DNA from: a virus
Taxonomy: Duplodnaviria; Caudoviricetes
Direction: 5' to 3' (one strand)
DNA length: 64,000 nucleotides
IMG/VR virus record: IMGVR_UViG_3300034062_005355
Part shown: positions 29,518 through 64,000 of the stretch, in pieces
Position numbering within the stretch: position 1 is the stretch's first letter
Layout of the letters: each line of letters begins with the position of its first letter
Position numbers and translations under genes: made by a program
Notes under the pieces: model-generated
What the model saw: only the letters and a program-made list of their open reading frames with translations
Database searches by the model: none
What the model was told of the DNA's origin: nothing

Positions 29518-29551
29518 AGATATAAATATATGGATATAATTAAAGTGCATA

Positions 29552-29580
29552 AAAAAAGGTTAAATATTTAACCTTTTTTT
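29552..29580. terminator. Bidirectional terminator-like hairpin
   Basis: aaaaaaggttaaa-ta-tttaacctttttt. Confidence 0.65.
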
Positions 29581-29585
29581 ATGTA

Positions 29586-31573: not shown

Positions 31574-31592
31574 TAATTTTTATTTATAAATA

Positions 31593-35818: not shown

Positions 35819-36568
35819 TTAATCGGTTTTCATTTTACTTTGAATGAAAATATACAACTTTTTGAATCTTTTCATTGAGCTACGAATTTCTTTTGTACTT
35901 AAATTTGTCATTTCTCTTAAAGACAAAAGAATAATATTTTTATTAAACTTATTATTATTAGCACCTGAGAATATGGATTCGTAATTATCGAATAAATCAA
36001 TTAATGCGTATCCTAATTTTTTTTCATTATCATTTAAATTTTCCCCCTCAATAAAATCCTTTAATTCTTTTAGATATTCTGTAATTATAATACTAGTGTC
36101 AACTACGTCGTCATCAATACGATACATCATATCAGGTCTTTCCTCAATACTTTCTGACATATCCTCATAAGAAACTTTTCTGTTAGTTTCTTTTTGGTCT
36201 TTTATTATTTGACCCATTAAGTAATTTTTACAAATAGTTCCAAAATAAGAATATGCTTTTTTTTCCTTTGAAGGTTTAAATTTGTCAACCTTGGTCATTA
36301 AGAATGAATGAGTATCACAATGGATTTCAGTAAAATCCATATCTTTACGATATAACTTATATCGTCTAATAATAGATGATATCATCTTATCTAAAGGACC
36401 TCTTAAGAATTCGTTATATATTTTGTTCTTCTCTTCTGAAGTTTCTGCCAATAAAAAATTTCTTACTGCGGTCTCTTCTCTAACATCAAAATAATTTATA
36501 TTTACCGTTTTCCTACCCCTTTTTTTAGATGAAACATCTTCTGTTGTTGCAGATAGAGTTTCTTGCAT
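35819..36568 (-). CDS. Phage sigma factor, T4 gp55-like
   Basis: Region-2-like LMTKVDKFKPSKEKKAYSYFGTICKNYL. Confidence 0.65.
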   Translation of the reverse strand: MQETLSATTEDVSSKKRGRKTVNINYFDVREETAVRNFLLAETSEEKNKIYNEFLRGPLDKMISSIIRRYKLYRKDMDFTEIHCDTHSFLMTKVDKFKPSKEKKAYSYFGTICKNYLMGQIIKDQKETNRKVSYEDMSESIEERPDMMYRIDDDVVDTSIIITEYLKELKDFIEGENLNDNEKKLGYALIDLFDNYESIFSGANNNKFNKNIILLSLREMTNLSTKEIRSSMKRFKKLYIFIQSKMKTD

Positions 36569-37374
36569 TATCCATTTTCTGATTGATATTTTATGACCCT
36601 ATCGTCAACAAAGAAAAATTCTTTTTTTGCAGTTTGAACCCAAAATTTAACTTCGTCTTCTAACATTTTGTTTTCACCAAACTTATAATTCCAAAAAATT
36701 GAACCTTCTCTCATGTTGGTGTGTTTATACCCAAGTCTAGGTATTGTCATAATTGATACAGAATTGTAGGTTAATCTTAATAAAAACTCATAAACAAACG
36801 TTAACTTGATTGAGGGTTTAAAACCTCCAAAGTCTTCAATAACTTGTTTTTTAATAACAGCGCCTGCTGTTTGGAAATTTTGATAGTCTTGTAAAGTTTC
36901 ATTAGTTAAAAATCCCATTTCTTGACTAAAGTTTGCCGCAAAGGTTGCTTCATTGGTAAAACCGGCAAATAAACCTTTTTCGTCCGTTTCAACAACCACA
37001 GGTAAAAATACTTGAGTTTCAGGATATGAACCAATGTATTTTTTAACATTTTTAAACCATATTGACGAGTATTCATCATCAAATTCAAATAATGAAACCC
37101 AAATACCTTTTGCGTTTTTAACCCCAAAATTAACTTGTTCTGCATAACTAGGTTCTTTATCCCATAATAATTTTGTAACATTTATATCTCCAAAATCATA
37201 ACCATTTAAATGGTTAACTAATGATTCTTCAGATGTGTGTACAATTATTAACTCTTCAATATCAACAGTTTGTGATTTAATTGAGGTTATTGCCTTTTCA
37301 AAATAGTCATTAAAATCTCTAGATTTTGATGATTTGATAGGTAGTATGATTGATAGTGATAATTTTTCGTTCAT
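36568..37374 (-). CDS. Glycosyltransferase, GT-A fold (GT2-like); likely start 37374
   Basis: LSIILPI, QVNFGVKNA, EFDDEY DxD-like motif. Confidence 0.8.
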   Translation of the reverse strand: MNEKLSLSIILPIKSSKSRDFNDYFEKAITSIKSQTVDIEELIIVHTSEESLVNHLNGYDFGDINVTKLLWDKEPSYAEQVNFGVKNAKGIWVSLFEFDDEYSSIWFKNVKKYIGSYPETQVFLPVVVETDEKGLFAGFTNEATFAANFSQEMGFLTNETLQDYQNFQTAGAVIKKQVIEDFGGFKPSIKLTFVYEFLLRLTYNSVSIMTIPRLGYKHTNMREGSIFWNYKFGENKMLEDEVKFWVQTAKKEFFFVDDRVIKYQSENG

Positions 37375-37375
37375 A

Positions 37376-38428
37376 TTATTCTTCTGTTTTAGATATTTGT
37401 TGTTCAAACGACTCTGATCTTACGTTTAGGTAGTTTTCAAATAACGAAATTACCGTAGAGTCAAATTCTTGTTTATTAGTATAGTTTTCAACCGTTTTCT
37501 TCATGTTTTCATAAAGATCAGTCTTGATGTTATCTTCTAACCAATTTTGAATATAGTCAGCAATAAAATCACAAATCATTGTTTTGTTTGTTAACCAAAC
37601 ACCATTATCATCATTCATCCATTCAGGTTGAATATTTGGAGTTTTACCAATAACAGGTACTCCTGATGCCATAGATTCTAATGGGAAGGTACCAAAACCA
37701 CTCTCGTCATCAATCCAAACACTAACAAAACAATCTCTTAATGAGTTCGCAAATTCTTTTTCAGAAAGTCCTCTTAAGTCTCTAAATGTAAACCATCTAT
37801 ATTGTGGAAATTTTAAATAAAAAGTCTTGATAATGTTAATAGTATCTTCTTGATTTTTAGTGTGAACTCCAATGATTGGCATTGGTGGGACATTTTTCGG
37901 GTAAAAACTATCTGTAATTAAAGGTTTAATAATATCAAAACTTGATTGTCTCATAACCGTTTCAATATACTCCTGTTGTTTTGTTGTTGTTGTTAAACAT
38001 TTAAAGAAACCATATTGAGCCCAATTTTGACCAGGTTGTAATGTTTCCACAATGTGATTATAGTTTTGGGTAAAAACTATTTTACCACAAGGTAAATTTT
38101 TAATTTGGTCCATCACGTACCCAAACAATTCAGGAACAACAATAAAATCTTCAGGCGCAATTTCTAAATTTTGACCTTCAATTGCTCTGTGAGGAATTGA
38201 CATGTATTCTTCATCAAGCCACGCAACAACACCAGCATATTCTTTTTTCTCGTGAAGAATTATAGGATTAAATCCCGCATCTAATAGCGATTTTGCCATT
38301 TGATAAATTAATCTAACAGAAGCTTTTGCATTACCTTTAGTATCTTGAATAAGAAAATAAATTCTTGATTTTCTATCTTTTAGGTTTTGAATCGACTGTT
38401 TTACTTTTTCGTTTAACGATGTATCCAT
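37376..38428 (-). CDS. Glycosyltransferase, GT-B fold
   Basis: IVVPE; ESGFGTFPLESMASGVPVIG. Confidence 0.8.
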   Translation of the reverse strand: MDTSLNEKVKQSIQNLKDRKSRIYFLIQDTKGNAKASVRLIYQMAKSLLDAGFNPIILHEKKEYAGVVAWLDEEYMSIPHRAIEGQNLEIAPEDFIVVPELFGYVMDQIKNLPCGKIVFTQNYNHIVETLQPGQNWAQYGFFKCLTTTTKQQEYIETVMRQSSFDIIKPLITDSFYPKNVPPMPIIGVHTKNQEDTINIIKTFYLKFPQYRWFTFRDLRGLSEKEFANSLRDCFVSVWIDDESGFGTFPLESMASGVPVIGKTPNIQPEWMNDDNGVWLTNKTMICDFIADYIQNWLEDNIKTDLYENMKKTVENYTNKQEFDSTVISLFENYLNVRSESFEQQISKTEE

Positions 38429-38429
38429 A

Positions 38430-38711
38430 TTAATAATGATTTATAAGTTTTTTATTTAATAAGCTATTAAAAGCTAACCTGAAAGGTATACTTGTATTTG
38501 AACTTGATTTCATTCCTAACTGCTCATCAATTTCTTCATGCTCAGTTAAAATGGTGTCCACCAACATTTTTACCATTTCAAATTTTATGATGTTAATCCT
38601 TGTTTCTGTGTTACCTGAAGTTTCACCTTCAGTATATTGGTTAGACATGTCCAAATATTCTTCAATTTTGTCTAAATCAATATAGTAGTTTTCTCCTAAT
38701 ACTTTAATCAT
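38430..38711 (-). CDS. Hypothetical protein
   Basis: 93-aa ORF in operon. Confidence 0.75.
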   Translation of the reverse strand: MIKVLGENYYIDLDKIEEYLDMSNQYTEGETSGNTETRINIIKFEMVKMLVDTILTEHEEIDEQLGMKSSSNTSIPFRLAFNSLLNKKLINHY

Positions 38712-39300
38712 ATAGCTCTTTTATTTTTGTTTGTAATTCTTTTATTTTTGTTATCGAATGTTCTGTTTCAACATCCTTGTTATATAATGTTTCATATTTT
38801 ATAACAATTTTTCCTTCAGGATGATTTAATAATAAGTTAGGATTTGCTGTAAGTAAAACGTCTATTGAATTCCACATTGAATTAATTGTTGGTTCACTAT
38901 AAAATTTAACCATTTCAACAAGACAACCAAATTTTGAAATGAAGAATAGAGACGCTGGTTTTGATTTACCAATTTCATCGGAAACGATTAAAATATCATG
39001 ATTATCTCTCATATCTAAATAAAAGTCGTTGAAATCCATCATACTTGATACCTCAACTGAACCCGCATGACCGAAGATTTCCATGGTATGTTCTTTGTAT
39101 AAAAAATTATACAGTTCATCTTCATCTTTAAATTTCAAGTGTTTACCAATATCTAAACTACTCAAGTCAGAAATTACCTCATATTCAGATTTTTCCTCGT
39201 CTTCTTTGAATGGATTATCCAAATACCATTTTTCGTATTCCTGTTGTATTTTTTTTAAAGTATCTCGTAAAACACCATTTAACTCTATTGCAATTCTCAT
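38704..39300 (-). CDS. 5'(3')-nucleotidase-like HAD-fold protein with altered motif I
   Basis: MRIAIELNGVLRDT (DxD replaced by ExN); IDVLLTANP. Confidence 0.55.
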   Translation of the reverse strand: MRIAIELNGVLRDTLKKIQQEYEKWYLDNPFKEDEEKSEYEVISDLSSLDIGKHLKFKDEDELYNFLYKEHTMEIFGHAGSVEVSSMMDFNDFYLDMRDNHDILIVSDEIGKSKPASLFFISKFGCLVEMVKFYSEPTINSMWNSIDVLLTANPNLLLNHPEGKIVIKYETLYNKDVETEHSITKIKELQTKIKELYD

Positions 39301-40046
39301 TCTGTTTCGTTATCGTATTTTTGTAATATTTTACTAATTAAAGGATTTCTAACAATATCGTTTTTATCTTTAAATTCAAATGTTGAAATATATTTGTCGT
39401 CTCTAAATTTTTCAATTGCATCCCATAATCCACTGTGAGTTTTATTTTTGTATCTATCTGATTGCTCAACATCGCCAGATATAAAGAATTTACTATTAAA
39501 CCCAATTCTTGTCAATAGTAATTTCATTTGACTTGGTGTTGCGTTTTGACCCTCTTCAAAAATTAAAATTGAGTTATCAATATTCATACCTCTCATAAAC
39601 GCCAATGCAAACACCTCAACAATTTCAAGTTCTTTTAATTTTTCTCTAATTTCTTTTCCTACAATTTTATTTAACAAATAATAAGACGGGAAAATATAAG
39701 GGTCTAATTTTTCTTCAACATTACCAGGTAAACTACCTAATTTTTCTTCAGCCTCAACTGCAGGTCTTACTATAATAATCTTTTCATAAGGTGTGTTTGG
39801 ATCAGCAAGTAAATCAATTGCTGCTTTCATAGTAATATAACTTTTACCTACCCCTGCTGGACCTGAACATACCGTAACTTCACTTGAGGTTAATGTATCG
39901 TAGTATCTTTTTTGTGTTTGAGTTAGAAATTTTTCTTTGGTTTTCTTTTTTAATATTGAACAGATTACTTCTTTTCTTGTTTTATTGTGACCTTCTTCCA
40001 TTGAAGGAGTGGGTACTGGTGATTTTTTTTGTCTTGTATTTGCCAT
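39297..40046 (-). CDS. phoH: PhoH-like ATPase
   Basis: GPAGVGKS, IIIVRPAVE, LGSLPG, FMRGMNI, EEGQNAT, SGDVEQSD. Confidence 0.95.
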   Translation of the reverse strand: MANTRQKKSPVPTPSMEEGHNKTRKEVICSILKKKTKEKFLTQTQKRYYDTLTSSEVTVCSGPAGVGKSYITMKAAIDLLADPNTPYEKIIIVRPAVEAEEKLGSLPGNVEEKLDPYIFPSYYLLNKIVGKEIREKLKELEIVEVFALAFMRGMNIDNSILIFEEGQNATPSQMKLLLTRIGFNSKFFISGDVEQSDRYKNKTHSGLWDAIEKFRDDKYISTFEFKDKNDIVRNPLISKILQKYDNETE

Positions 40047-40061
40047 TTAAATTTGTTTTTT

Positions 40062-41126
40062 TTATAAGTTATCAACTTGAGATTTAATCCATTCATATGT
40101 TTTTTTAAGACCGATGGACAAGGGTTGATTTACTTCCCAACCAATTGCACTTTTATATAATCTATTATCTGAATTTCTTCCTTTAACGCCTAAAGGGCAT
40201 TTAAATCCGTATTTATTAAAAAATTCTTCTCCTTCTATATTTTTAATTTTTATGTCTTTACCTGAAATAGCAATTGCCATACTTGCAAGTTGATTGATTG
40301 TCACCATTTCTTCACTACCAATATTAACTGGTTTTGATAATTCTGAATCCATTAATCTTAACACCGCTTCAACGCACTCATCAACGTATAAGAATGAACG
40401 TGTTTGCACACCACTACCCCAAACTTCAATCTCACCACCATCAGGTGTTTCGGCAGCTTTTCTACACATCGCTGCTGGCGATTTTTCTTTACCACCCTTC
40501 CAAGTTCCCATTGGTCCAAAAATGTTATGAAATCTTGCAATTCTAACATTTAATCCATAGTTTCTATGAAATGATAAAAATAATCTTTCCGAAAATAATT
40601 TTTCCCATCCATATTCGGAATCTGGGTTTGCGGGATAAGCAGAATATTCTTCACAATTTGGATTGTTAGGGTCTAACTGATTATGTTCAGGATACATACA
40701 TGCCGATGACGAGTAAAATACTTTTTTAACTCCTTGTTCGACACATTCTTTAGCAACATTTAAGTTAATCATCGCCGAGTTATGCATAACATCCGCATCG
40801 TGTTCTCCTGTAAAAATATATCCTGCACCACCCATATCTGCTGCAAGTTGATAAACTTCGTCAAACGAAGTTACTTCGGAATAAGGTTGTTTGAGATATG
40901 AAAATGGTATAATTTTATTTTCGTAAGTTTCTACTCTAATAACTGCTTCCACATTTTTTGGGTCACGTAAATCGTAAGTTAAAAATTCATTACACATTTC
41001 TTCAGGTGTAAAATATTCGTGACTTTTTATGTCGACTACTCTTACGTAGTTACCTTCATCTTTTAATTTTTTTGCCAAGTGACCACCTATAAATCCGCCG
41101 CCACCAAGAATTAATATTTTTTTCAT
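40062..41126 (-). CDS. GDP-mannose 3,5-epimerase-like extended SDR
   Basis: GGGGFIG, YQLAADMGGAGYI, FYSSSACMYP, YGWEK, RFHNIFGPMGTWKGGKEKSPAAMCRK. Confidence 0.88.
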   Translation of the reverse strand: MKKILILGGGGFIGGHLAKKLKDEGNYVRVVDIKSHEYFTPEEMCNEFLTYDLRDPKNVEAVIRVETYENKIIPFSYLKQPYSEVTSFDEVYQLAADMGGAGYIFTGEHDADVMHNSAMINLNVAKECVEQGVKKVFYSSSACMYPEHNQLDPNNPNCEEYSAYPANPDSEYGWEKLFSERLFLSFHRNYGLNVRIARFHNIFGPMGTWKGGKEKSPAAMCRKAAETPDGGEIEVWGSGVQTRSFLYVDECVEAVLRLMDSELSKPVNIGSEEMVTINQLASMAIAISGKDIKIKNIEGEEFFNKYGFKCPLGVKGRNSDNRLYKSAIGWEVNQPLSIGLKKTYEWIKSQVDNL

Positions 41127-41128
41127 AA

Positions 41129-41509
41129 TTAATATTCTACGTATTCTTTAACTTCTCTAATTTCAGAAGAAGTTCTTTCGTTTATTTCATTTTTTAATTT
41201 GAATCTTTTATCATTTGTGTGATATACATTTCTTGAAAGTTCAATAAACTTTGAATTAAAAATTTTTTCAGTTTCAATAATTCTTAACATATCTTCAATC
41301 TCCCATAGTTTTGAATTAGTATCAACTAACTCGTGGTATAATTTTGTTATTTCTTCATCGTTTAAATAATCTGAAGAGAAGTTATATAATAATTCAAATT
41401 CTTTATTAACGTACACCAATTTTTCAAGGTTAGTTATTTTTATTTTTTTAACGTGAAGGATTGATAATTTGTCAATTAATTCTCCAACACTAACAGGTAT
41501 TGTAATCAT
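41129..41509 (-). CDS. DUF6165-like protein
   Basis: IPVSVGELIDKLSIL...NSKLWEIED...VYHTNDKR. Confidence 0.75.
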   Translation of the reverse strand: MITIPVSVGELIDKLSILHVKKIKITNLEKLVYVNKEFELLYNFSSDYLNDEEITKLYHELVDTNSKLWEIEDMLRIIETEKIFNSKFIELSRNVYHTNDKRFKLKNEINERTSSEIREVKEYVEY

Positions 41510-41511
41510 AG

Positions 41512-42096
41512 TTATTTTTTTTTAAAAATCATTATGGTTTTTAGAAACCAAGATGCAATTGCAGGTGAAACTGAATTACGTGCACTCATACTATCATTTT
41601 CCAAGTAGTCAAAACCTAAATCATTCATTTTTAAAATAACTTCATCATTATTCATACAATTAACATGACCATCACCTAATTGACCAATGATGGCCCAAGA
41701 CAATATTATTTTATTTGTAGTGAGTGATGTAATGTTATCTAAAAAAATTGATTCATATTGCTTTGGTATATGTTCACCAACTTCTAAACAAATTGTGTTG
41801 TATGCGTTATTTTTTAAATTGTCATAATTTTTATAGTTTTTTATTGGGTTTGACAAATCCCAATTTTTAATAAATTTTAGACTTCCCTTTCTAACCTCAC
41901 CTTCAAATCCGTGTAAGTTTGTGAATCCATTGTTATGTAAATTTTTAAGATAATCCCCAAAACCACATCCAAAATCAATTAATTGTTTATCCTTATCATC
42001 CTGTAGGTAATTTAAAATCCAATTTGCTAAGCTTGGGTCATGCACATGGATTGCTTCTGTGTCATCTGATGTCCAATATCCTGTTTCTGTTATCAT
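41512..42096 (-). CDS. Class I SAM-dependent methyltransferase
   Basis: LIDFGCGFG; ICLEVGEHIP; GQLGDGHVN. Confidence 0.85.
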   Translation of the reverse strand: MITETGYWTSDDTEAIHVHDPSLANWILNYLQDDKDKQLIDFGCGFGDYLKNLHNNGFTNLHGFEGEVRKGSLKFIKNWDLSNPIKNYKNYDNLKNNAYNTICLEVGEHIPKQYESIFLDNITSLTTNKIILSWAIIGQLGDGHVNCMNNDEVILKMNDLGFDYLENDSMSARNSVSPAIASWFLKTIMIFKKK

Positions 42097-42097
42097 T

Positions 42098-43858
42098 TTA
42101 TTTTTTATAAAAAAGTTTATCGTTTTCTAAAGTTTCTCTCACTTCAAAATTATTCTCAATAAGAATAGTTTCCATGTCACCTAAAGAATTCCCATTATTT
42201 TCTGTTAAGTTTTTATCCCATTCAAGATAAATGTAAACATCGTTACAATTTTTAAGAAATCCTGTCATGCCCTCCAACACTTCTTTTTCAAATCCTTGAA
42301 CGTCAATTTTAATAAATCCAATATTAAGATTTTTATTTTTTTTAATCCAATCATCAAACGTGGTGCAATTAACTGTTTCTTCAATATAATTTTTACTAAA
42401 TGACATATTACTTATTGCAACATCTTTATTAAAAGATGTGTTGTCTGAACAATATGGTATGTAGATTGTTTCTTTTTTTGTTTTATTAGAAACTCCCATA
42501 TTTACAATATTAAAATTATTACATTTGTTTTCTTCTCTTCCTAATTCTAACAATTTTATATTCATTCGTACAGGTTCAAAACCGTATACTTCATATCCGT
42601 TTAGTGAGGATGGAATACTAAATAAACCACAATTTGCACCAATATCAATAATAATTTTTGATTTATCTACCAAACTTATTAACTCTTGTAATTTACTATA
42701 TTCTTTATATTCCTCATTTACAACATTAGTTTTTTGGTAATAAAGATTTGTAAAATAATCGTAGTTATATATTACGTAATTTAGATTATAACTATTTTTA
42801 AATTCATATCTGTTTATACTTGTTGATATCTTATTATTTATTTTTTCAAAATATTTGTCGTAGTCAAAATCATCTTGTTTAATTTTTGTTTTATCAAAAA
42901 TTTTAGATTTAATTTTTTTAGAATCTCTTTCTGAAATATATTTTTCAAAATATTTTTCATAATCAAAATCTTTAAGGTTATTCACGTAATAGTGTTCACC
43001 AACAATTAATTTAAATTCGTTAGGGTCTTTATTACTACCATCAATATCGCTATGACTAACCCTTTGGTTTGCCATTCCTGGAGTAAAAGAATAACAATTT
43101 AACTTACTTTCAATTTTGGAGCAATACACATGGTCAATTGCATAAGTGTCGGCAATGTTTTCATCAATCAATTTTAAAATTTTATCAATTGATTTTGGGT
43201 TAACCAAATAAGCATGTGTTGTAAATGCGCCATAAACTCTGTGGATATATTTTGTATCAGTTAATTCAAAATCACCTGAAGGGTTCCATCTATCTTTATG
43301 TTCATTCAAATGGTAGTACGATGATAAAAAGAATATATCCCAATCTAAATTAAAGTTGTCTTCAATATACTTAAACCTGTCCAAAAAATCTTCACATAAT
43401 TCAACATCATCTTCAAATATACCTAAAATTTTATTACTGTCATGTGTTTTAAGTAATTTATAGTGTGAAAGAAAACAACCCTTTTGACCTTTACTGTAAG
43501 CCTTTGGAAAATTAACATCATATTCATTATCATCAACAATTGCGTCAAAAAATTCATAGTTTATATTAAACTTTGGTAAATGAGAGTTAATCCAATCCCT
43601 TCTATCATTTCTTTTTTTTAGATTAATACATTTAAAATCTATATCATCTAATTTAATTTTATTAAATTTAGTCTTACTTGGGGGTAAATTTTCTAAAGAA
43701 TCTATTTTTTTATTTAAAAACCAAGAAGCTTTTTTTAATTCTTCCAAATCATTAAAATCTTTATTTTTTGAATTTAAAATGTGAAACAATGAATTACCAA
43801 CAGTGTATGACAAATTCCAATTCTCAATAACATCTATTATATTTTTATCTAAATTCAT
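42098..43858 (-). CDS. Fusion: degenerate DUF3310 + GT25 glycosyltransferase + FkbM methyltransferase (likely start 43858)
   Basis: VIENWNLSYTVGN..LEELKKASWFL; CINLKKRNDRR, GCFLSH, IFEDDV, TTHAY; IIDIGANCGLF, KIDVQGFE. Confidence 0.85.
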   Translation of the reverse strand: MNLDKNIIDVIENWNLSYTVGNSLFHILNSKNKDFNDLEELKKASWFLNKKIDSLENLPPSKTKFNKIKLDDIDFKCINLKKRNDRRDWINSHLPKFNINYEFFDAIVDDNEYDVNFPKAYSKGQKGCFLSHYKLLKTHDSNKILGIFEDDVELCEDFLDRFKYIEDNFNLDWDIFFLSSYYHLNEHKDRWNPSGDFELTDTKYIHRVYGAFTTHAYLVNPKSIDKILKLIDENIADTYAIDHVYCSKIESKLNCYSFTPGMANQRVSHSDIDGSNKDPNEFKLIVGEHYYVNNLKDFDYEKYFEKYISERDSKKIKSKIFDKTKIKQDDFDYDKYFEKINNKISTSINRYEFKNSYNLNYVIYNYDYFTNLYYQKTNVVNEEYKEYSKLQELISLVDKSKIIIDIGANCGLFSIPSSLNGYEVYGFEPVRMNIKLLELGREENKCNNFNIVNMGVSNKTKKETIYIPYCSDNTSFNKDVAISNMSFSKNYIEETVNCTTFDDWIKKNKNLNIGFIKIDVQGFEKEVLEGMTGFLKNCNDVYIYLEWDKNLTENNGNSLGDMETILIENNFEVRETLENDKLFYKK

Positions 43859-44472
43859 ATATTTTTGTTTACCCAAGACTCCCAAACAAAGTCATATTTA
43901 TAATTGATTTCAAATCCATTTCCTTTTAATCCCTCAAATATTTTTTCATAGTTTTCTTCATAATTTTCACAAAAGGTATGAAATTGTATTTGTAGGTATT
44001 TTACATTTTTTAAAAATCCTGTCTCAATCCAATTTAAAAGTAATGGATATTCTTCACATTCAATGTTAATTTGAATTAAGTCAATTTTATTTAAATTATA
44101 TTTGGATATAAAATAACCAATGTCGTACGAATCAACACTAATTTTTCTTTTTGAAACTTCAATTGTTTCTGAAGTTGCACACCCATTAACATACAAGTTT
44201 ATTTTTTTATTTGATGTTGATATTGCAACTCCTTCAATGTTAACTTTTGGATTTTCACCAAAATTACGTGTTAACTCATAAACAAAATTAGGGACTGGTT
44301 CCACAATAATTAAGTTTGGATTAAACTTATCAATAATTTTTTTAGACCATACTCCAGTAAATCCACCAAGTTCAATTACTTGGGAATTAGAATCTAACGG
44401 ATAATCAATAATTTTAATTTCATCTCCTCTATCTCTTTCCCACATTTCTTGTGGGGTTAAAACATTTTCCAT
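43855..44472 (-). CDS. FkbM-family methyltransferase
   Basis: VIELGGFTG, IIVEPVP, IDLIQINIECEEY, LQIQFH. Confidence 0.8.
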   Translation of the reverse strand: MENVLTPQEMWERDRGDEIKIIDYPLDSNSQVIELGGFTGVWSKKIIDKFNPNLIIVEPVPNFVYELTRNFGENPKVNIEGVAISTSNKKINLYVNGCATSETIEVSKRKISVDSYDIGYFISKYNLNKIDLIQINIECEEYPLLLNWIETGFLKNVKYLQIQFHTFCENYEENYEKIFEGLKGNGFEINYKYDFVWESWVNKNI

Positions 44473-44477
44473 ATTTC

Positions 44478-45317: not shown

Positions 45318-45331
45318 AATTTTGATATGTT

Positions 45332-46387: not shown

Positions 46388-46392
46388 TATGT

Positions 46393-47214: not shown

Positions 47215-47217
47215 AAT

Positions 47218-55222: not shown

Positions 55223-55278
55223 AATAAATTAATATATTTTATCAAAATATAGTAATTCACGACTAATAAATAAAGCGG

Positions 55279-55914
55279 TTAGGATAATTTTTTAATTTTG
55301 GTAACTTTACCCTCAAAGATGTGTTTACCAACTTTAAAACTAAAAACTTCGTTTGATTTTTCAGAACTTTCGGTTATTAAACCATTTTCATGTAATGCAT
55401 CATTAACCGCTTCATTAATCATTTTTTTGATTAATTTATAGTCAATTCCTCCTACAGATGGTTGTGTTTGTTGAACTTGTTGTTTTGGTTTTGCCGATTC
55501 AGGAATATATCCTTCTTTGTTTGTATTCATTAATCTTGACGCTCTTTCAATCAAATCATTAGATATTGTTGTATTTTGTTGTTGGGGTTGTCCAATAGGA
55601 TGTTCCATCATTAACCTTTTAATTTCATCAGGTAATTTAGAATTTTTAATTGCGTCTACTGTAGGAACTCCAACTGGCTTGGTGTTTTCTCTTGGTACAT
55701 TTGAAAGGTAAGGTTGTTGTGTTTGTTGTGTTTCCTGTAAAAATTCTGCAGGAATATTGTATTTTGCGTTTGGAATGTCAAATGTTTCAGGTGAATTTAG
55801 TTGTTGTAATGATGTCGGTGGTAATCCTCCGTTCATAGAATTTGAACTTTTAATTCCATCTGATTTATCCATAATTGCTTTAGACAAAGCTAATTTTTCC
55901 ATTAATCTATCCAT
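55279..55914 (-). CDS. Hypothetical Q/P-rich protein
   Basis: 211-aa ORF. Confidence 0.75.
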   Translation of the reverse strand: MDRLMEKLALSKAIMDKSDGIKSSNSMNGGLPPTSLQQLNSPETFDIPNAKYNIPAEFLQETQQTQQPYLSNVPRENTKPVGVPTVDAIKNSKLPDEIKRLMMEHPIGQPQQQNTTISNDLIERASRLMNTNKEGYIPESAKPKQQVQQTQPSVGGIDYKLIKKMINEAVNDALHENGLITESSEKSNEVFSFKVGKHIFEGKVTKIKKLS

Positions 55915-55915
55915 A

Positions 55916-56371
55916 TTATGTTATATTTTCTTCTTCGGGTGTTTGAGGTTGAGTTGGTGGTGTTTGAGGTTGTGGTGTTTGAGGATTATTATCAAACTTA
56001 GCATTTATTATAACACTGACCATACTTTTATCACCGTTAAAATTATAACCTGGTTTAGGTTCATTGTAAACCTCACCTGTAGGTTTGTTTGATAGTATTT
56101 TATCTAATCTAAAAAGTCTCCAACCAGGCAATGGTTGTTCACCCTTATATCCTGTATGAGACGCTCCTTCACTATCCCACGCCCTTAAAACTTTATTACC
56201 CGCTTTACTAACTCCTAAGCATACAGGTTCAATTTGACGTATACCTCTACCACCTGGTTCGTCACCATCATAGTAAATAATAACGACTTTTCGTCCTTTA
56301 ATAGCATCAATAATACTATCTAAAGAAGCAATTTCGCAAATTAAACCTTTTAACGCTCCTTGTAGTTTCAT
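55916..56371 (-). CDS. Stand-alone WYL-domain protein
   Basis: IYYDG...RQIEPVCLG...VLRAWD...WRLFRLDKI. Confidence 0.8.
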   Translation of the reverse strand: MKLQGALKGLICEIASLDSIIDAIKGRKVVIIYYDGDEPGGRGIRQIEPVCLGVSKAGNKVLRAWDSEGASHTGYKGEQPLPGWRLFRLDKILSNKPTGEVYNEPKPGYNFNGDKSMVSVIINAKFDNNPQTPQPQTPPTQPQTPEEENIT

Positions 56372-56664
56372 TAGAAATTAGGGTATACTTTTGACGAGTT
56401 AAATTTATTGATTTTTATTTCACTTTTTCTTTCAACAACGTCTTCAATTGTTCCTGCTCCCGTGTTATATACGTCTAAGAACTCTCCAGTTCCTCTACCT
56501 AAAGAGTCTCCGTCAGCGATAGCGTCTTTATTAACTACTGAGTATTCATTACCAACTTTATTGTAGTCGTTTTTTGGAATTAATTTAGCTCTTTCTTGGT
56601 CGGCGACAGCGGAAAGTGTGTTTGGTTCCGTTTGATTTAAATCAACAGGTGTTTGTTGTGCCAT
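56371..56664 (-). CDS. Hypothetical protein
   Basis: 97-aa ORF in operon. Confidence 0.75.
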   Translation of the reverse strand: MAQQTPVDLNQTEPNTLSAVADQERAKLIPKNDYNKVGNEYSVVNKDAIADGDSLGRGTGEFLDVYNTGAGTIEDVVERKSEIKINKFNSSKVYPNF

Positions 56665-56668
56665 ATTA

Positions 56669-57136
56669 TTATATTTTTGATATTAGTTCGTTTATTCTTT
56701 TAACACTTTCATTAACAGATGGATTATATTTGTCCACAGTTTTTGAATGTTCTTGAGATGGTCTTACATTTGTAAAATCTTTTTTCTCGTGAGAGTCAAT
56801 AAATTGGTTCATCATACCACCATTCATTTTGTTTGTCTTGGTATTCTTAACATAATCCCTCATTTTTCTTAATTCATCGTTAACCCAATTTTTTATTTCA
56901 GCGCCACCATTTAAAATAAATGAAGGTTCTTTATGGTTACCTTTAAAGTTATCAAAAAAGTTTTTAATTCTTTTTAATTGTTTATAATTGATAAATTTTT
57001 GAGATTGAAGTTCTTTATTTCTATTATAACCTTCAGTATTTTCATCCGCATTTTTTACCATATGAAAACATTTTTTCATATGTTCCCTTTTGTCGGATGG
57101 GAATTCTATTTCGTTATCGTATAAACTTTTATTCAC
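56669..57136 (-). CDS. Hypothetical protein
   Basis: 155-aa ORF. Confidence 0.75.
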   Translation of the reverse strand: MNKSLYDNEIEFPSDKREHMKKCFHMVKNADENTEGYNRNKELQSQKFINYKQLKRIKNFFDNFKGNHKEPSFILNGGAEIKNWVNDELRKMRDYVKNTKTNKMNGGMMNQFIDSHEKKDFTNVRPSQEHSKTVDKYNPSVNESVKRINELISKI

Positions 57137-57959
57137 CTTTTTTTATGAGTTTAATTAAATCTTCTTTTGAGTAACCATTTTTTTCAACATGATTTAAAAG
57201 AGACTTTAAATTTTTTCTAATTAATAATGGTAATTCATCAATGCTTTTACCCATTTCTTTTTTACTAACTTCAGAATTATCTGAATTTTTTTTATTCATC
57301 AACATATCTTCCACAACTTTAATCATTTTTTGTTTTTGAATTTCTGATAGAGTTGCTCTTGTTACAAAATTTTTGTCTTTATAATATTTTGATTTTTTAT
57401 CTTTGTTTCCTGTTGGGTCTTGTCCTTTTTGTTTTGTTCTTTCTTTAGCTTCGTCAGGGTCCATACCCATCTTCTTTACTAAATATTTGTAAGTTTGAGC
57501 TCCGTCCATATCTTCAGTTTCTTCGTAACCAAAAGCGCCTGACATATCAATTTCACTAACTTCTTCAACTGACTCACCATAATATGTTCTATAACCACGA
57601 GAAATAGGGTCATTTGTAATTCTTGCTGCAGCAACAGTTTGGTCCATGGTTTTCATTGGGTGAAGTTTCGGGTCAAGAATTGGAATTTTAGAATTGGATA
57701 ATGCTCCATCTAAATTGACTAATTCTTCTAAATCTTTCTTAAGACCTTTAGTTGTTTTAATTTTTTTCTCTTTGGCAACTTTCTTAAGATGGTTTTTAAC
57801 CTTAACACCTTTACTTTTTTCAAAATGAATTACCTCGTCTTTTTTACGAGCTTCTGTTAAATTTTCCTCCACAGAGTAGTATAAAGAGTATTTTTCTCCC
57901 TTATCTCTTAAAAGAAAATAGTATGGTGATGAATAAAATTCTGTATCTGTTGTAATCAT
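57129..57959 (-). CDS. Hypothetical virion-type protein
   Basis: 276-aa ORF; TATTTATA at 57976-57983 (minus strand). Confidence 0.75.
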
Positions 57960-58012
57960 CTCTTCTTTTTTATCTTATAAATACTAGCACACAAGGTATT
58001 TATCATTGTAAT

Positions 58013-61000
58013 ATGGCATATCAAAATATTAATCAATATAATTTTAGAAGATTTGGTCTAAAACCTGTCAATGAAGTGACCGACTTATGTCTTGCATCAG
58101 ATGAAAAAGATTATGACCAAGAAGTGATCTTTTCACCGTTATTAATTGGTGAAGACGATGGTAATAGAATGCCATTCAAATTTAATTTTAATAGTAGCGG
58201 TACCACATTATGTCAGGTTTCACCTTGTGTTTTTAGTAGTGATACAATCGTTTCTGAAAATTATTGGAATCCAACAGATACTGACCCAAATTTTTGTCCT
58301 ATTGTTACTAATTTATGTGATGTTGGTCTGACAGGTATTGACAACGGGTTAGTTCAGAATATGTCAGGAGAAACTATTCAAGTAACAACAGGGTTATATA
58401 CAAATATTTCTGATAAATTTAGCAGATACAAATATGATAGGAGAATGAAACTTCATCCTATTACTGGTTTTACAACAACACAAAATAGATTATGGAATGA
58501 TGGTTCATACAATTATGATTTATCTTACACAAACGCTGGTGGAGATATTGGATATGTTGCAACTTTAAATGGTGGTTTCTATCAAGGGTTTTACAAACTT
58601 GCAGGATATGATTATCAAGTTTTCCCTGAAAGAGTTAGTTTAGGTTGGACGGCAGAGTTCATGTTAAAATATAGATGGACAGGTAATACTTCAGTTGGAT
58701 TAAATGTTAGATACCCTGAAAATAAAGGAACCTTCTTTTATATGGGGGCAAGATCCGAAAATAAATTTTATCATTATGCCGATGGTAGTCCAAAACAAGA
58801 TACAGGATATACAAGAGTTACCTCAGGTTTAACTTGTATGCATACTTGTGGTTGTGCTAGTAGTGCAAACACATCTTCAGAATGCCTTCAAGTATATCAA
58901 CCATCAGGAGGAACAATAACAACATGTACTTGTGGATGTGCGTGTGATTGTACGACCACAGCACAATACCCTGAAAAAGACCCATTATATGATGAGGTTT
59001 CAAACGCGCTGTCATTAAGATTAAGTGGGGATACTGGTAGTCCAAGATTATGTGTTAAAACATATAGAATAACTGGCGGATGTGAAAGTACTGGAACTTG
59101 TCTTACAGGATTAACATATGTTACAGGAACTTCAGTGACTGAATGGTGTTCAACAAGAGGTATCTTTGATGATTGTTCAGGTACAACATATCAAAATGTT
59201 GAACATTGGGCTCAAATTGATGCCGTATTCCAAAGATATGAATGGTTTGACACTTGTGACCTTTACGATAAAGGTGGGTTAGGGTTATTAGTTAAAGATG
59301 TGTATTTTGCAACAATTGAAGGTAGGAGTGTTTCGTTAATTGAACCGCCAATTACCCGTGAACAACCTTATGACCCAGCGTCGACTGAAGTTGTAACATT
59401 TAATGACATGTGGACTGAAGAACAAAAGTACAGATTAGGTACACTTAAGTTCTATGTTAATGGTAAGTTATTCATGGTTGCCGAAAACTTTGAAGAAATT
59501 ATTCCAAGATTATTAAATGTTGAAAAAGAAAAACAAATTGGTGTTGGGTACAACATTTCAATTGGTGGTGGTACCCAAGGTCTTCACGATAACTTAACTT
59601 TTTCAGGTGGATGTCCCACTGATTTAAGTGGTTTACAATATCAACAGGACCCTGAATGTTTAACAACTTATGATTTAGACAATACAATTTATTCAGGTTT
59701 AACAACCCAAATTAGATTAGAAGAACTTTTTGGCGGTAGTATGATTGGTGATATTAGTGCATTTAGAATGTACACCGAACCATTAAATCCTGCTCAAATA
59801 AAACACAACTTTAGAATATTAAAAAACACATATAATTTATTAAATCCTGATTGTCCTAATTGTAGAATTGTAATACCATCAAACGATTTATATTACATAA
59901 TAATACCTGATAATGATTTATCATATATTAGTATACCTGCGAATGATTTGTATTATGAACTAATTCAACCTAGTCCAACACCAACAAATACACCAACAGT
60001 AACTCAAACCCCGACAAATACACCAACACCAACGGTAACTCAAACCCCGACAAATACACCAACGGTAACTCAAACTCCGACAAATACAGAAACGCCAACA
60101 AACACACCAACGGTAACTCAAACCCCAACAAATACAGAAACGCCAACAAATACACCAACGGTAACTCAAACTCCGACAAATACAGAAACGCCAACAAACA
60201 CACCAACTACAACCGAAACACCTACACCAACAAATGCTTTGGATGTTTTTAATATAACTTCAGGTTCAACCGCAAATATTGCTTGTGATAGTGGTGTTAT
60301 TGGAGTAATATATGCAGAAAATTTATCTTTTGATACTAATACACAATTCTATAATAATCCAAATGGAGCCGTTATTGGTGATATGTCAGGATATTATAGT
60401 TATAGTGGGTTAGTTGTTGAATTAGACTCAAATGGTTTTGAGATAGGTGGATTTAGTTCTTGTGCTGTGGTTCCTTCGGTTACACCAACTAACACTCCAA
60501 CTGAGACACCAACACCAACTAACACACCAACACCAACTGAGACTCCTACTAATACACCAACCGAAACCTCAACACCAACTAATACATTAACACCAACTGA
60601 AACACAAATCATTACTCCAACACCAACAAACACTAATACTCCAACCAATACACCATCCTCAACACCAAGTATTGTAACTTCAGGTTTGGTTATTCAACTT
60701 GACGCATATGAAAGCTCAAGTTACCCTGGCACAGGAACAACTGTTTTTGATATTACAGGTGGGTATGACCATACATTAATTGGTGCAACTTACACAGTTC
60801 TTAATGGTATAAAATGTTTTGATTGTACAACAGGAAATAATAGAGTTGATTACAACTTAACAGGACCTTTATTACCAAATTCAGGATACACATATATCAC
60901 TTGGGCAAGATTGATACCTAGTAATGCTGGATTTAGAACAGTACTTTATACAAAGGGTCCTCCTAAAATCACACCAATTACAATACCTAATGGAACAAGT

Positions 61001-62209
61001 ACATTAGGATATTGGGCAACAGGATTTGTAAGCTCAGGATATGATGTAGCATCTTCAGCTGGCGTTTGGGTTCAGTTTGCGGTAGTTGGAACAAACACAT
61101 CTCAAACATTCTACATAAATGGTTCACAGGTGGGAAGCACAATTAATGAGGGTGCTGGTGGAACTACACATTGGGGGTGGGGTAATAATGATACTGCTTC
61201 TCAGCCTTGGGGACATGTTGCCAACATGTACTTTTACAACAGACAATTAAGTCTTGATGAGATAACACAACAATACGATTATTTGGCTCCAAGATTTGTG
61301 GAACCAACACCGACCCCAACTCCAACAGTAACACCAACTAACACTCCAACACCCACTGAAACACCAATAACAGAACTAATTAATCCCGTTTTAATAAGTG
61401 GTATTAATGAATATATTTCAGTTGGTAATGGTGAGTATTTGGAATTTTTTGAACCAGAACCAACACCAAGTCCAACAGTAACTAAAACACCAACTAATAC
61501 ACCAACTCCAACTTCAACACCTGTAGTTCCCGTAACTACTAATCTTAGGTTATATTATGACCCAAGTAATTTATCAAGTTACCCTGGAACAGGTACGACA
61601 ATTAATGATTTATCGGGTAATGGATTAAATGGAACAATGTCCAATATCACATATACATCACCATACTTCACATATAATGGAACCTCATCACAAGTTAGTG
61701 TTGCGGATAATGTGTTATTAGAACCAGGAAGTGGGGATTGGACTATGGAAGTATGGGTTAATCAATCAGTTTTAGGTAATGATGTTGTACTTGGAAAGTT
61801 TGATGATGGGGGTCTTACTGTAGATGTAAGTTATAGTATCAGAACAACTAATACTACATACTACGCTCAATTAGGTTCAGGTAGTGGTAGTGGTTCATCA
61901 TTGTTTGTCAATAGTACAAACTACGTTGGAACGATTGGTACTTGGTACCAAATAGTTTATGTGTTTACCAATGTCGCATCTAATACACTTGAAACATTTG
62001 TAAATGGTGTAAGTATAGGAAGTGTGGGTCATAGTTTGGCAAGTATATTAAACTCAACTAACCCACTTTATATTGGTAGTTACAATGGTGGAGAGTTTCC
62101 TCAATGGTTTGATGGAAAAATTGGTATAACTCGTTTATACGACGCATCACTTACCTCTTCCCAAGTATTACAAAACTTCAATGCGGATAAATCAAAATAT
62201 GGATTATAA
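58013..62209 (+). CDS. Large tail-fibre/adhesin-like protein with concanavalin-A/LamG domains and Pro/Thr repeats
   Basis: Two modules starting [13 protein letters not shown] / [13 protein letters not shown] with WxQ..V, YING, IG...Y..L LamG features; TPT repeat blocks; Cys-rich N-terminal region. Confidence 0.8.
59969..60233 (+). repeat. Pro/Thr tandem repeats ([10 protein letters not shown] / TPTNTE units)
   Basis: Read directly; further blocks near 60477-60668, 61307-61365 and 61459-61522. Confidence 0.9.
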
Positions 62210-62233
62210 ACAAATATTTATAAAATAAAAAAT

Positions 62234-62728
62234 ATGTCATTAACAGGTAAAACAATCGGAGAATTAACTTTTTTAGCGGAACCAACCAATAACACTCTTA
62301 TTCCAGTAGAACTGAGTGGTGTAACCTATCATATTGCTTACTCAGGCATCACAAATAATCTTGGTAATACAGGTTCTTGGACAGTAACACCAGGAACTAA
62401 CAATTACAGTTTTACAGTTGATATTAATAATACATATAACTTATGGGTTCTTGCAAATATACCAAATGGTATAATAGTTTATAATGCAACAGTAAGTGTT
62501 AGTAATTCTAATGTACCTGTAATTGGTGTTCAGTATGCATGGAATTATACTGGTGGGGGTAGTCCAATATTGTTTACAAGTATCCCTGTACAGATTATAG
62601 GAACCGCGGGTGCAATATCCACAACGTCACCAGATGTAGGTACATCAACAAATACATTTGTATTCGGTATTCAAAACAATACGGTATCAGGTCTTACGGT
62701 TAATTACGGATATGTTAAAGTAAGTTAA
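62234..62728 (+). CDS. Beta-rich hypothetical virion protein
   Basis: MSLTGKTIGELTFL..PT....IPVELSGVTYHI N-terminal module; T/N/G-rich. Confidence 0.7.
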   Translation: MSLTGKTIGELTFLAEPTNNTLIPVELSGVTYHIAYSGITNNLGNTGSWTVTPGTNNYSFTVDINNTYNLWVLANIPNGIIVYNATVSVSNSNVPVIGVQYAWNYTGGGSPILFTSIPVQIIGTAGAISTTSPDVGTSTNTFVFGIQNNTVSGLTVNYGYVKVS

Positions 62729-62729
62729 A

Positions 62730-63299
62730 ATGTACACTACAGACTGTAATTACTATAGAATAACAAATTATAATAATGTCCAAGAAGGATATTATAGTTG
62801 GACTGGTTGTACTGATATAATTGGCGTTAACCCTGTTGACCCACTTCAGACAAGTTATTTTTGTGCTAAAGACATTTCTGTTGAAGAATATGGTGCACCG
62901 CTTGATGTGGTCTTTATTGGTTTATGTCCGTCAAATACACCAACACCAACATTAACTCCAACACCAACACAAACTCCTGTAACACCAACACCTACACCAA
63001 CACCTGTTACTCCAACTCAAACACCAACTCCAAGTGCAACGCCAACCGTTATTTATATGTATAACTTATGGTCAGGTGGGTATTATCAAAACGCTTGTGA
63101 AGCTGCGGGTATGTTCGCAAATCCTGCTAACGTAACAATCTATACAACAAAACCATTTAATCTTTTAGTTCCTGGTGATAATGCCTTTGGTAATCAATCA
63201 TTAACAATACCTCCAGTAAACGCTAATTTTACAATTTCAAATGGTAATAGATTTATTCAATTAAGTGGAACGTTAGTAATTAATGTCGGATTGTGTTAA
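62730..63299 (+). CDS. Pro/Thr-repeat protein
   Basis: Central [19 protein letters not shown] block flanked by small Cys-containing domains. Confidence 0.8.
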   Translation: MYTTDCNYYRITNYNNVQEGYYSWTGCTDIIGVNPVDPLQTSYFCAKDISVEEYGAPLDVVFIGLCPSNTPTPTLTPTPTQTPVTPTPTPTPVTPTQTPTPSATPTVIYMYNLWSGGYYQNACEAAGMFANPANVTIYTTKPFNLLVPGDNAFGNQSLTIPPVNANFTISNGNRFIQLSGTLVINVGLC

Positions 63300-63325
63300 T
63301 TTAAAATAATTAAGTATTTATTTAT

Positions 63326-63853
63326 ATGGCAATTGGAGTAAGAATTTTAAGTGATAATTTAAGTGGTCAGACCACAAATGTTACGTATTTTCCAAACACT
63401 GGAGGTACAATTGATTTGGGGGTACAAGTATTCCCATTTAATTATATATCAAGTTATTTTTATGGTGACTACGATTGTTATGTTCCAACTTATGGATACA
63501 ATTATGTTGTTAATGTGCCAGGGCCAACGCCAACACCCACACCAACATTAACACCAACCCAAACTCCAACTGCGAGTGTAACACCAACCCAAACTCCAAC
63601 TAATACTGAAACACCAACTAACACTCCAACTGCGAGTGTAACACCAACAGTTACAGAAACTCCAACAAATACTCCAACTGAAACTCCTACACCAACAGTT
63701 ACAGAAACTCCAACTGAAACTCCTACACCAACAGTTACAGAAACACCAACAAATACTCCGACTGAAACTCCTACACCAACAGTTACAGAAACGCCAACCA
63801 ATACACCAACAGTTACAGAAACACCAACCAGTACACCGACACCAACATCATAA
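63326..63853 (+). CDS. Pro/Thr-repeat (mucin-like) protein
   Basis: C-terminal ~110 aa almost entirely TPT/ETPT repeats. Confidence 0.85.
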
Positions 63854-63915: not shown

Positions 63916-64000
63916 ATGGCATGTAGCAAATATACTCTAACAAATACGGGTACAACCGCAGTGAACTTCAACTATAGAAGATGCGATGACTCTATGTGGG
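63916..64000 (+). CDS. Partial CDS running off the window
   Basis: [28 protein letters not shown]...; TATTTATA at 63891-63898. Confidence 0.7.

Follow-up and report, generated by a model that had tools for sequence, protein, structure and literature searches.

The window analysed here, a 64,000-nucleotide (nt) stretch of viral DNA (IMG/VR record IMGVR_UViG_3300034062_005355; Duplodnaviria, Caudoviricetes), contains a glycosyltransferase (GT) operon of 18.6 kb on the minus strand (36568-55222) and, on the opposite strand, an array of genes for proteins with long Pro/Thr (PT) tracts. Judged from these genes, the phage probably sugar-coats its own proteins. We propose, with a probability of about 0.5, that the locus specifies a phage-encoded cytoplasmic system for mucin-type protein O-glycosylation. 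What the analysis shows directly is the gene content, the conserved architecture of the locus, the family and fold of the putative initiating enzyme as found in relatives, and a recurrent pairing of PT genes with GT60-like genes. Genes are named below by their lower coordinate.

A GT60-like transferase gene follows the PT array in relatives

In relatives of the window, the PT array is followed on the same strand by genes for a 421-amino-acid (aa) protein, a GT25 enzyme, a 295-aa protein and an HtrL/YibB-like protein, and then by a 125-aa open reading frame (ORF) and a DNA polymerase gene. The 421-aa gene occurred in 58 related loci and in each came straight after the last PT gene; its products were 82-94% identical to one another. 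It directly followed the array in every related contig long enough to show that stretch. The 421-aa protein (L072:15059-16324) matched Pfam PF11397 ('GlcNAc') with 222.6 bits against a gathering cut-off of 21 (E 1.3e-65). We take this Pfam family to be CAZy family GT60. It includes Dictyostelium Gnt1 and the protist polypeptide alpha-GlcNAc-transferases, which start mucin-type O-glycans on Thr-rich domains (PMC8724618, PMC9472816).

The metal-binding motif D92-S93-H94 (DSH) was invariant in 34 sequences of 45-82% identity. A model of the 421-aa protein based on the 34-sequence alignment had a GT-A fold and a predicted local distance difference test score (pLDDT) of 92. When this model was compared with PDB, the first 48 matches were all animal or Toxoplasma polypeptide GalNAc-transferases (E ~1e-10); the best match in Swiss-Prot was Dictyostelium Gnt1, a Skp1-hydroxyproline GlcNAc-transferase (E 1.5e-24, template modelling score 0.64). 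A PDB search with the sequence itself gave nothing useful. Sequence and model together make the 421-aa protein a candidate polypeptide N-acetylhexosamine (HexNAc) transferase, which would transfer HexNAc from UDP-HexNAc to Thr, Ser or hydroxyproline. A hydroxyproline route of the Skp1 type was considered and dropped: one of the three complete relatives had no 2-oxoglutarate/Fe(II) oxygenase, and in the other two such genes were distant from the locus.

In L028 and L002, the beginning of the PT gene before the GT60-like gene (L028:14914-15027, L002:6907-7020) shares 95.6% identity with the final 114 bases of the window, and the 58013 N-domains of both relatives are 96% identical to that of the window. 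The GT60-like gene starts at L028:16034 and L002:8027; by synteny with these two relatives, it would lie ~1.1 kb past the right end of the window. Two variants of the gene were seen elsewhere. At L201:8440-12138 it reads through into the next gene, giving a 1233-aa product, and L242 and L243 carry tandem GT60-like paralogues.

PT proteins of the window

The PT genes begin 2.8 kb from the operon, in agreement with the ~3 kb given by the first-pass annotation. The array opens with 58013-62209 (+), encoding a modular protein of 1398 aa with four PT tracts (243 residues). A conserved 640-aa N-domain is followed by two Laminin_G_3 lectin domains (Pfam), and the parts are linked throughout by PT tracts. 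The N-domain, which is probably ConA-like to judge from its Atlas features class, was 68-98% identical in more than 100 contigs; the C-terminal part was variable. Further along the plus strand are 62234-62728 (164 aa), 62730-63299 (189 aa, with a 48-residue PT tract between two small domains; in 60 related loci) and 63326-63853 (175 aa, a 58-residue head plus a 117-residue PT tract that extends to the C-terminus). A fourth PT gene is represented by its start only (63917-64000, +) and runs off the window end. Genes 58013, 62730 and 63326 had been described as three consecutive genes with PT tracts; the tracts are there, but the genes are not consecutive, since 62234-62728 lies within the array and has no tract. 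No signal peptide was found in the PT proteins of the window. A head-module protein (14487-15368, +) contains two copies of the basic repeat PTKPGTKPDTRPRPSHPGKNPNPGENPAPKAKK, a low-complexity type unlike the TPT tracts.

In every relative there were 3-5 consecutive PT genes. Their N-terminal heads were conserved; tract lengths and distal modules were variable. One relative has a 1437-aa protein with collagen triple-helix repeats inside its PT array (L077:12338-16651; Pfam Collagen, E 1.6e-52). GT25, the family of the enzyme whose gene adjoins the GT60-like gene, is also the family of collagen galactosyltransferases.

Pairing of PT and GT60-like genes in other lineages

Distant GT60 relatives were collected by a scan ordered on the sequence of XacN1, a cultured Xanthomonas jumbo phage, and the GT60-like proteins were clustered at 80% identity. 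In the large clade, the ORF next upstream of the GT60-like gene was a co-directional PT ORF in 108 of 117 usable loci, a count drawn from loci that share ancestry and are not independent. Among the 80%-identity clusters, such an ORF lay immediately upstream in 13 of 40, and PT ORFs were found within 8 kb upstream in 17 of 40. Several of the paired lineages had a different GC fraction (0.36-0.43) and a PhoH gene in place of the window's left flank; outside the tract, their PT proteins had no detectable homology to those of the window.

In a complete 326-kb relative, PT tracts occurred in only 9 of 495 ORFs of at least 80 aa, at three places: this locus, a head-module protein with a different, basic PTKP repeat, and a four-gene cluster. 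Divergent from this second PT cluster is the gene for a 1210-aa protein that combines methyltransferase, GT4 and GT9 (heptosyltransferase-like) domains (L289:4520-8152; ~304.5-308.2 kb of complete relative G001).

PT ORFs also directly adjoin GT60-like genes in bacterial genomes, among them those of Gemmatimonadaceae, Vicinamibacterales, Cytophagales, Jiulongibacter and Arcticibacterium (pairs L307, L308, L309, L312, L313, L336, L351, L314 and L340); some of the PT ORFs in high-GC genomes may be spurious, and the comparison has no matched control. These pairs indicate that the association of PT and GT60-like genes is not confined to phages.

XacN1 encodes homologues of the GT60-like protein (ORF334, 46% identity), the 295-aa protein (ORF332, 31%) and the HtrL-like protein (ORF330, 43%). 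This module is four genes from the gene for a 3313-aa protein that follows the baseplate wedge genes and has PT tracts near its C-terminus. XacN1 differs from the window in that it has no left-hand operon and no PT gene directly beside the enzyme, and its module contains a carbamoyltransferase. Purified XacN1 virions showed at least two periodate-Schiff-positive bands of unreported protein identity, and the authors suggested that the phage's own GTs were responsible (PMC5852040). This staining is the sole experimental hint that bears on our model.

Gene content of the glycosyltransferase operon

Families were assigned by Pfam, NCBIfam and PDB searches. The closely packed operon contains 9 GT genes with 10 GT domains, 4 methyltransferase domains and 2 nucleotide-sugar enzymes, as the first-pass annotation had reported. 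All genes described in this section are on the minus strand.

The first GT gene, 54014-55222, encodes a GT-B enzyme (GT4-like; Glycos_transf_1 at a weak E of 2e-5) and was found in 67 related loci. Its family profile matched the C-terminal domains of PglA-type GT4 enzymes in PDB, a generic match only, and a PDB search with the sequence gave nothing useful. Proteins 26-27% identical to it are present in Phapecoctavirus and related coliphages, in rows of four GT genes that adjoin primase/helicase and DNA polymerase genes, as in Escherichia phage ESCO13 (L103; NC_047770.1 105097-108241). Three genes unrelated to glycans follow at 52310-54017: a PolB-exo-like 3'-5' exonuclease, a dUTPase and a small haloacid dehalogenase-type phosphatase. 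Gene 50676-52313 encodes a two-domain GT (GT-A Glyco_tranf_2_5 plus GT-B Glyco_transf_4) that was found in 57 related loci and had no match in cultured phages. The NAD synthase NadE (49897-50676) occurs in only some relatives (16 loci). Next are a nucleoside-diphosphate-sugar dehydrogenase resembling UDP-glucose 6-dehydrogenase (48743-49900; 42 loci) and a GT2 enzyme (48033-48743; 40 loci), both counts being limited by the 10-kb flank.

The middle of the operon (40062-48036) encodes an S-adenosylmethionine-dependent methyltransferase (47218-48036), two GT11 enzymes (46393-47214 and 44478-45317; Glyco_transf_11 at 79.8 and 43.7 bits, cut-off 23.9), a DUF3310 protein with a Glyco_transf_7C (GT-A) domain (45332-46387), an FkbM methyltransferase (43855-44472), a GT25 enzyme with a C-terminal FkbM methyltransferase (42098-43885), a further methyltransferase (41512-42096), a DUF6165 protein and a short-chain dehydrogenase/reductase (40062-41126). 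The GT25-FkbM protein had only two relatives in IMG/VR, which were near-identical. By sequence similarity, the short-chain dehydrogenase/reductase is clearly a GDP-mannose 3,5-epimerase: it matched Arabidopsis GME (PDB 2c59) with E 1.8e-89, as against 1e-23 for UDP-xylose synthase (UXS) and 1e-17 for GDP-fucose synthase (GFS). The pairing of this epimerase with GT11 enzymes suggests that the sugar transferred in the window is L-galactose or L-gulose and not fucose. Where the window has the epimerase and two GT11 genes, relatives have instead GDP-mannose 4,6-dehydratase with GT10 and GT11.

The right flank (36568-40046) contains PhoH, two genes of unknown function, a GT-B enzyme (37376-38428) and a GT2 enzyme (36568-37407). 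The operon is directly followed by the gene for a conserved 249-aa protein (35819-36568) with a weak match to late sigma factors of the gp55 type (phrog_234, E 5e-4), which we treat as a lead only.

We tested all proteins of 35819-57959 for a hydrophobic 19-mer typical of a membrane span. None was found, except for the nucleotide-binding loop of NadE, and Pfam searches of the operon revealed no flippase, polymerase, transporter or initiating phosphoglycosyl transferase family. The lack of membrane segments indicates that no flippase, polymerase or initiating phosphoglycosyl transferase is encoded, and the earlier statement that the operon has no recognisable flippase, polymerase or export gene stands.

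Upstream of the operon, the minus-strand unit starts with 57129-57959, which encodes a 276-aa protein conserved in 74 related loci. Four small genes (56669-57136, 56371-56664, 55916-56371 and 55279-55914; 55279-57136 in all) were found in 69-73 related loci. Searches of PHROG and Pfam gave no match for these five genes, for 28261-35429 or for 62234; 55916-56371 had a sub-threshold WYL match. The designation of the genes at 55279-57959 as 'virion-type' was accordingly not borne out.

Constant flanks and a variable cassette

The window proteins were mapped on 80 related loci, and seven contigs with both operon ends were compared. Gene order was constant: PT array, divergent intergenic region, five small genes of unknown function, left flank, middle segment, right flank. 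The conserved left flank consists of the GT-B gene 54014, the exonuclease, the dUTPase, the two-domain GT 50676, the dehydrogenase and the GT2 gene 48033. The conserved right flank consists of PhoH, the two genes of unknown function, the GT-B gene 37376 and the GT2 gene 36568, followed by 35819-28261; it was syntenic in all paired contigs. The left operon was conserved in 40-67 of ~74 loci, and operon and PT array were adjacent in every clade contig examined. In relatives, GT genes lie on either side of the PT array.

The middle segment was 2-10 kb long and its gene set changed from phage to phage; that of the window, 40062-48036, is ~8 kb. In other relatives it contained GT10, GT11, GDP-mannose 4,6-dehydratase, a DegT aminotransferase, a hexapeptide acyltransferase and other methyltransferases. 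All versions of this cassette centre on L- or deoxy-sugars derived from GDP-mannose, GTs of the fucosyltransferase type and O-methylation, which is a chain-capping chemistry. Constant flanks around a variable middle are as expected of an exposed epitope under diversifying selection, and the PT proteins vary in parallel. The complete relatives have further GT genes at other places in their genomes.

Regulatory signals

The motif TATTTAT was present in sense orientation within 40 nt of the start codon in 14 of 34 genes with an upstream gap, and in antisense orientation in 6 of 34. It lies 7-36 nt before the starts of 1288, 5913, 11886, 18466, 20359, 21813, 22954, 27576, 30053, 35435, 57129, 58013, 62234 and 63326, which include portal and other head genes, 57129, the PT genes 58013 and 63326, and 62234. 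TATTTAT may be a phage-specific promoter or short-leader element, and its presence before both PT and head genes speaks for the proposed model. The 57129 gene has TATTTATA 24 nt upstream of its start codon.

The divergent intergenic region between operon side and PT array (57960-58012, 53 nt) contains an inverted pair, TATAAATAC-N13-GTATTTATC, so that each of the two divergent genes is preceded by TATTTAT[A/C], at a distance of 16-24 nt from its start codon. Both halves were kept in 37-38 of 39 distinct relatives. The same region also contains TATAAATA, which resembles a T4 late promoter.

A scan for sigma-70 promoters and terminators gave counts no higher than in shuffled sequence, and no terminator-like site was found in the 55222-55279 gap before the operon, as the first-pass annotation had noted. 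Read-through from 57129 is therefore possible. A shared TATTTAT motif had also been cited for the operon. This argument does not hold: of 47 distinct relatives, only 4 retain the TATTTAT that precedes the first GT gene (at -50; 55266), and the relatives share a different conserved pattern at that position. The timing of operon expression is not decisive for the model either way.

Phage lineage and host

The left half of the window contains genes for a large terminase, a portal protein and a gp23-type major head protein (head module, 12.8-27.3 kb). In the set of cultured relatives and similar genomes, the capsid protein had no close relative; the nearest, with 42-46% identity across roughly half of the protein, came from an uncultured 484-kb phage, Microcystis phage Mel-JY01 and the Flavobacterium 'immuto' phages. 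No near match to the whole region was found in cultured phages. The locus was found in more than 100 IMG/VR contigs, of which three were complete genomes of 309-326 kb, and the 54014 protein had more than 8000 homologous clusters (at 90% identity) in metagenomes. These counts point to a freshwater jumbo-phage lineage of very high abundance, one of the most abundant phage groups of lake metagenomes. The window comes from a jumbo phage whose genome is ~300 kb or larger and whose capsid is of the T4 type.

The host is probably a member of Bacteroidota. Five contigs of GC 0.33-0.39 (L294, which is the 230-kb contig CALJOK010000014.1, and L292, L295, L296 and L298) had been sorted into metagenome-assembled genomes (MAGs) of Saprospiraceae, and their GT60-like genes were ~70% identical to that of the phage. 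A similar GT60-like contig from a Bacteroidia MAG (L293) had a GC fraction of 0.50. The Saprospiraceae contigs are probably phage contigs co-binned with their host, which hints at host identity. There may be overlap between the window lineage and the 'moraphages', which were reported to have Bacteroidota hosts and four core GT families without assigned function (PMC12619734). One metatranscriptome run contained contigs of relatives (mostly <95% identity) spanning 44-64 kb; it is uninformative on strand, level and timing, DNA carry-over is possible, and it was not used as evidence.

Discussion

In the proposed mechanism, sugars would be attached to the modular lectin proteins 58013, 62730 and 63326 and to the product of the gene from 63917, whose tracts offer hundreds of Thr hydroxyls. 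A soluble polypeptide HexNAc-transferase of the GT60 family, its gene followed by GT25, HtrL/YibB-like and other GT genes, would initiate the chains. The left operon would both supply activated sugars (UDP-glucuronate and GDP-L-galactose or GDP-L-gulose) and lengthen the chains. A common inner part would be the work of the conserved GT-B and GT2 enzymes; outer residues that are strain-specific, methylated and capped with L-sugars would come from the ~8-kb cassette (GT11, GT25, GT7C-like, FkbM and class I O-methyltransferases). We infer that the acceptor is Thr within the tracts, that the chains started by the GT60-like enzyme are also those on which the operon acts, and that the PT proteins are fibres or decoration of the virion; the coat may have a shielding or host-range role.

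A broader reading, which we advance only tentatively, is that the phage has a complete self-encoded pathway, with a GT60 initiator, PT fibre proteins, an inner chain and a swappable 'serotype' cassette that gives each strain its own glycocalyx, and that this pathway is one case of a widespread prokaryotic route related to, and possibly older than, eukaryotic mucin-type glycosylation. A widespread prokaryotic route is considered because GT60-like and PT genes pair in several bacterial phyla.

Several observations weigh against the proposed mechanism. The first-pass annotation held that the phage glycosylates its own PT proteins; the GT60 homologue after the PT array in relatives is strong, independent support for this claim, but conserved gene neighbourhood is all that links the operon to the PT proteins. 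The GT60-like gene lies outside the window, and its presence in this genome is predicted from synteny. Soluble enzymes are not peculiar to protein glycosylation, as the peripheral GTs of lipid-linked pathways also have no membrane segments. With its dUTPase, exonuclease, NadE and PhoH, the operon has genes that are usual in metabolic operons of the early or middle phase, and the motif before its first GT gene is poorly kept. The model of the 58013 N-domain (23 sequences) was poor, with a pLDDT of 45 and only a beta-sandwich core predicted with confidence. No PT tract is present in lineages L252, L258, L262 and L264, which nevertheless retain the GT60-like gene, 54014 and the 58013 N-domain; L252 and L258 have a Thr/Ser-rich protein instead. 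XacN1-like lineages have no PT gene beside the GT60-like gene, and their module is near DNA-replication genes. The high adjacency count of the large clade is also subject to the shared ancestry mentioned above.

The most serious rival is a split of function, in which the GT60 module (GT60-like, GT25 and HtrL-like genes) glycosylates the PT proteins and the left operon makes some other product, perhaps through changes to a glycan of the host envelope or to a different acceptor, and is merely adjacent. The right-hand module is itself multi-GT and is common to XacN1-type phages that have no left operon; the left operon is divergently transcribed, carries early-type metabolic genes and has an upstream motif that differs from that of the PT and head genes in most relatives; and complete relatives have further GT genes elsewhere. 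However, operon and PT array stay adjacent despite turnover of both the cassette and the PT C-termini, and the membrane proteins, flippase and initiating enzyme of a lipid-linked route are missing. We regard a split as rather unlikely. Remodelling of the host surface is distinctly unlikely. It would have the GTs act on undecaprenyl-linked intermediates (lipopolysaccharide, capsule or the general O-glycan of Bacteroidota), thereby blocking superinfection or altering the dying cell, with the PT tracts as unmodified linkers. GT2, GT4, GT11, GT25, UDP-glucose dehydrogenase and GDP-sugar enzymes are indeed typical of O-antigen and capsule loci with a variable middle, peripheral GTs of such pathways do without membrane segments, and PT linkers occur in many unglycosylated proteins. 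Against this, the characterised members of the family to which the PT-adjoining enzyme belongs all act on polypeptides, no Wzx, Wzy, WbaP or WecA-type protein was found, the PT-GT60-like pairing recurs across phyla, and XacN1 virions contain glycoproteins. Initiation and export would have to come from the host, and the link of a polypeptide-transferase homologue with PT genes would be left without an explanation.

It is quite improbable that the GTs modify capsid, sheath or tube subunits and that the PT proteins are not the main acceptors. GTs of Che8-type mycobacteriophages do glycosylate the C-termini of capsid and tail-tube proteins, according to the account of Freeman et al. (2023) given in PMC12619734, and here lineages without PT tracts keep their GTs; but the GT genes of the window surround the PT array and not the head module at 12.8-27.3 kb. 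In addition, the mucin-type polypeptide transferases (GT27 and GT60) prefer Thr/Pro-rich acceptors. Hypermodification of DNA, with oligosaccharides built on hydroxymethylated phage bases, is highly improbable. Phage GT clusters can put mono- to trisaccharides on 5-hydroxymethylcytosine (bioRxiv 10.1101/2023.12.21.572611), the operon has a dUTPase and an exonuclease, and the right-hand module is beside a DNA polymerase gene both here and in XacN1. The three complete relatives, however, have no C5 DNA methyltransferase (PF00145), a family that the same method finds in 9 of 14 control genomes, and no match to Tet/JBP (PF12851) in a search made without a positive control; each has one ThyA-family gene (E 1e-56 to 1e-98), a match that does not separate thymidylate synthase-type enzymes from the hydroxymethylase. 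At least nine GTs, fucosyltransferase-type enzymes and sugar O-methyltransferases are far beyond known DNA glycans, which have three sugars at most, and the nearest folds to the GT60-like enzyme are polypeptide transferases.

If phage-encoded mucin-type glycosylation is confirmed, natural phage particles could commonly bear a sugar coat that is specific to the strain. Such a coat would influence adsorption and antigenicity, how readily virions stick to particles and mucus, and how well they resist proteases and grazers. Soluble enzymes of bacterial type would become available for mucin-like O-glycosylation in the cytoplasm of E. coli, and the origin of mucin-type glycosylation would become testable. 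The variable cassette is a natural experiment in gene content versus glycan structure. To our knowledge, a few mycobacteriophages are to date the only phages with demonstrated virion glycosylation by their own enzymes, and mucin-type initiation (GT27/GT60) is regarded as a eukaryotic process. In our literature search, no paper connected phage glycosylation with GT60 or mucin-type enzymes or with PT repeats.

Comparison with known systems

The closest parallel is with the protist GT60 systems (Trypanosoma cruzi TcOGNT, Dictyostelium Gnt1 and pp-alpha-GlcNAcT). They share with the phage enzyme PF11397 and the DxH motif, Gnt1 being its best structural match, and Thr/Pro-rich mucin-like tracts serve as putative acceptors in both, on chains that further GTs could extend. 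The phage enzyme differs in being of phage or bacterial origin and cytoplasmic, in having no Golgi anchor and in having an extra C-terminal beta domain of ~100 aa. Unlike the Dictyostelium Skp1 route, the phage relatives have no conserved prolyl hydroxylase. The animal GT27 GalNAc-transferases, which provided the top 48 PDB matches, have in common with it a GT-A domain with DSH followed by a second C-terminal domain; identity is only 10-17%, and the phage enzyme has neither a recognised ricin-type lectin domain nor a membrane anchor.

Giant viruses, with the capsid glycans of chlorovirus PBCV-1 and the fibril glycans of Megavirinae, have their own nucleotide-sugar synthesis, GTs, sugar methyltransferases and GT-methyltransferase fusions in clade-specific clusters. 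Those clusters, however, belong to eukaryotic viruses and involve different GT families and protein targets. The serine-rich-repeat adhesins of Gram-positive bacteria receive O-HexNAc on Ser/Thr-rich repeats in the cytoplasm, and strain-variable GTs extend the chains; their initiator is the GtfA/GtfB pair of GT4 GT-B enzymes and export is by SecA2/Y2, whereas no export system is present here. O-antigen and capsule clusters likewise have constant flanks around a variable middle of GT, nucleotide-sugar and modifying-enzyme genes, but the phage locus has no Wzx, Wzy, ABC transporter or initiating phosphoglycosyl transferase.

Mycobacteriophages Che8, Corndog and Myrna offer the precedent for phage-encoded GTs that act within the host cytoplasm on structural proteins of the same phage (Freeman et al. 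2023, Cell Host Microbe 31:1216, as cited in PMC12619734). As described there, these actinophages use 2-4 GTs and act on short C-terminal extensions of capsid or tail-tube subunits. The locus described here is set apart from them, by description, by at least 13 GT genes, dedicated PT-repeat proteins, an initiator of the GT60 type and a variable cassette.

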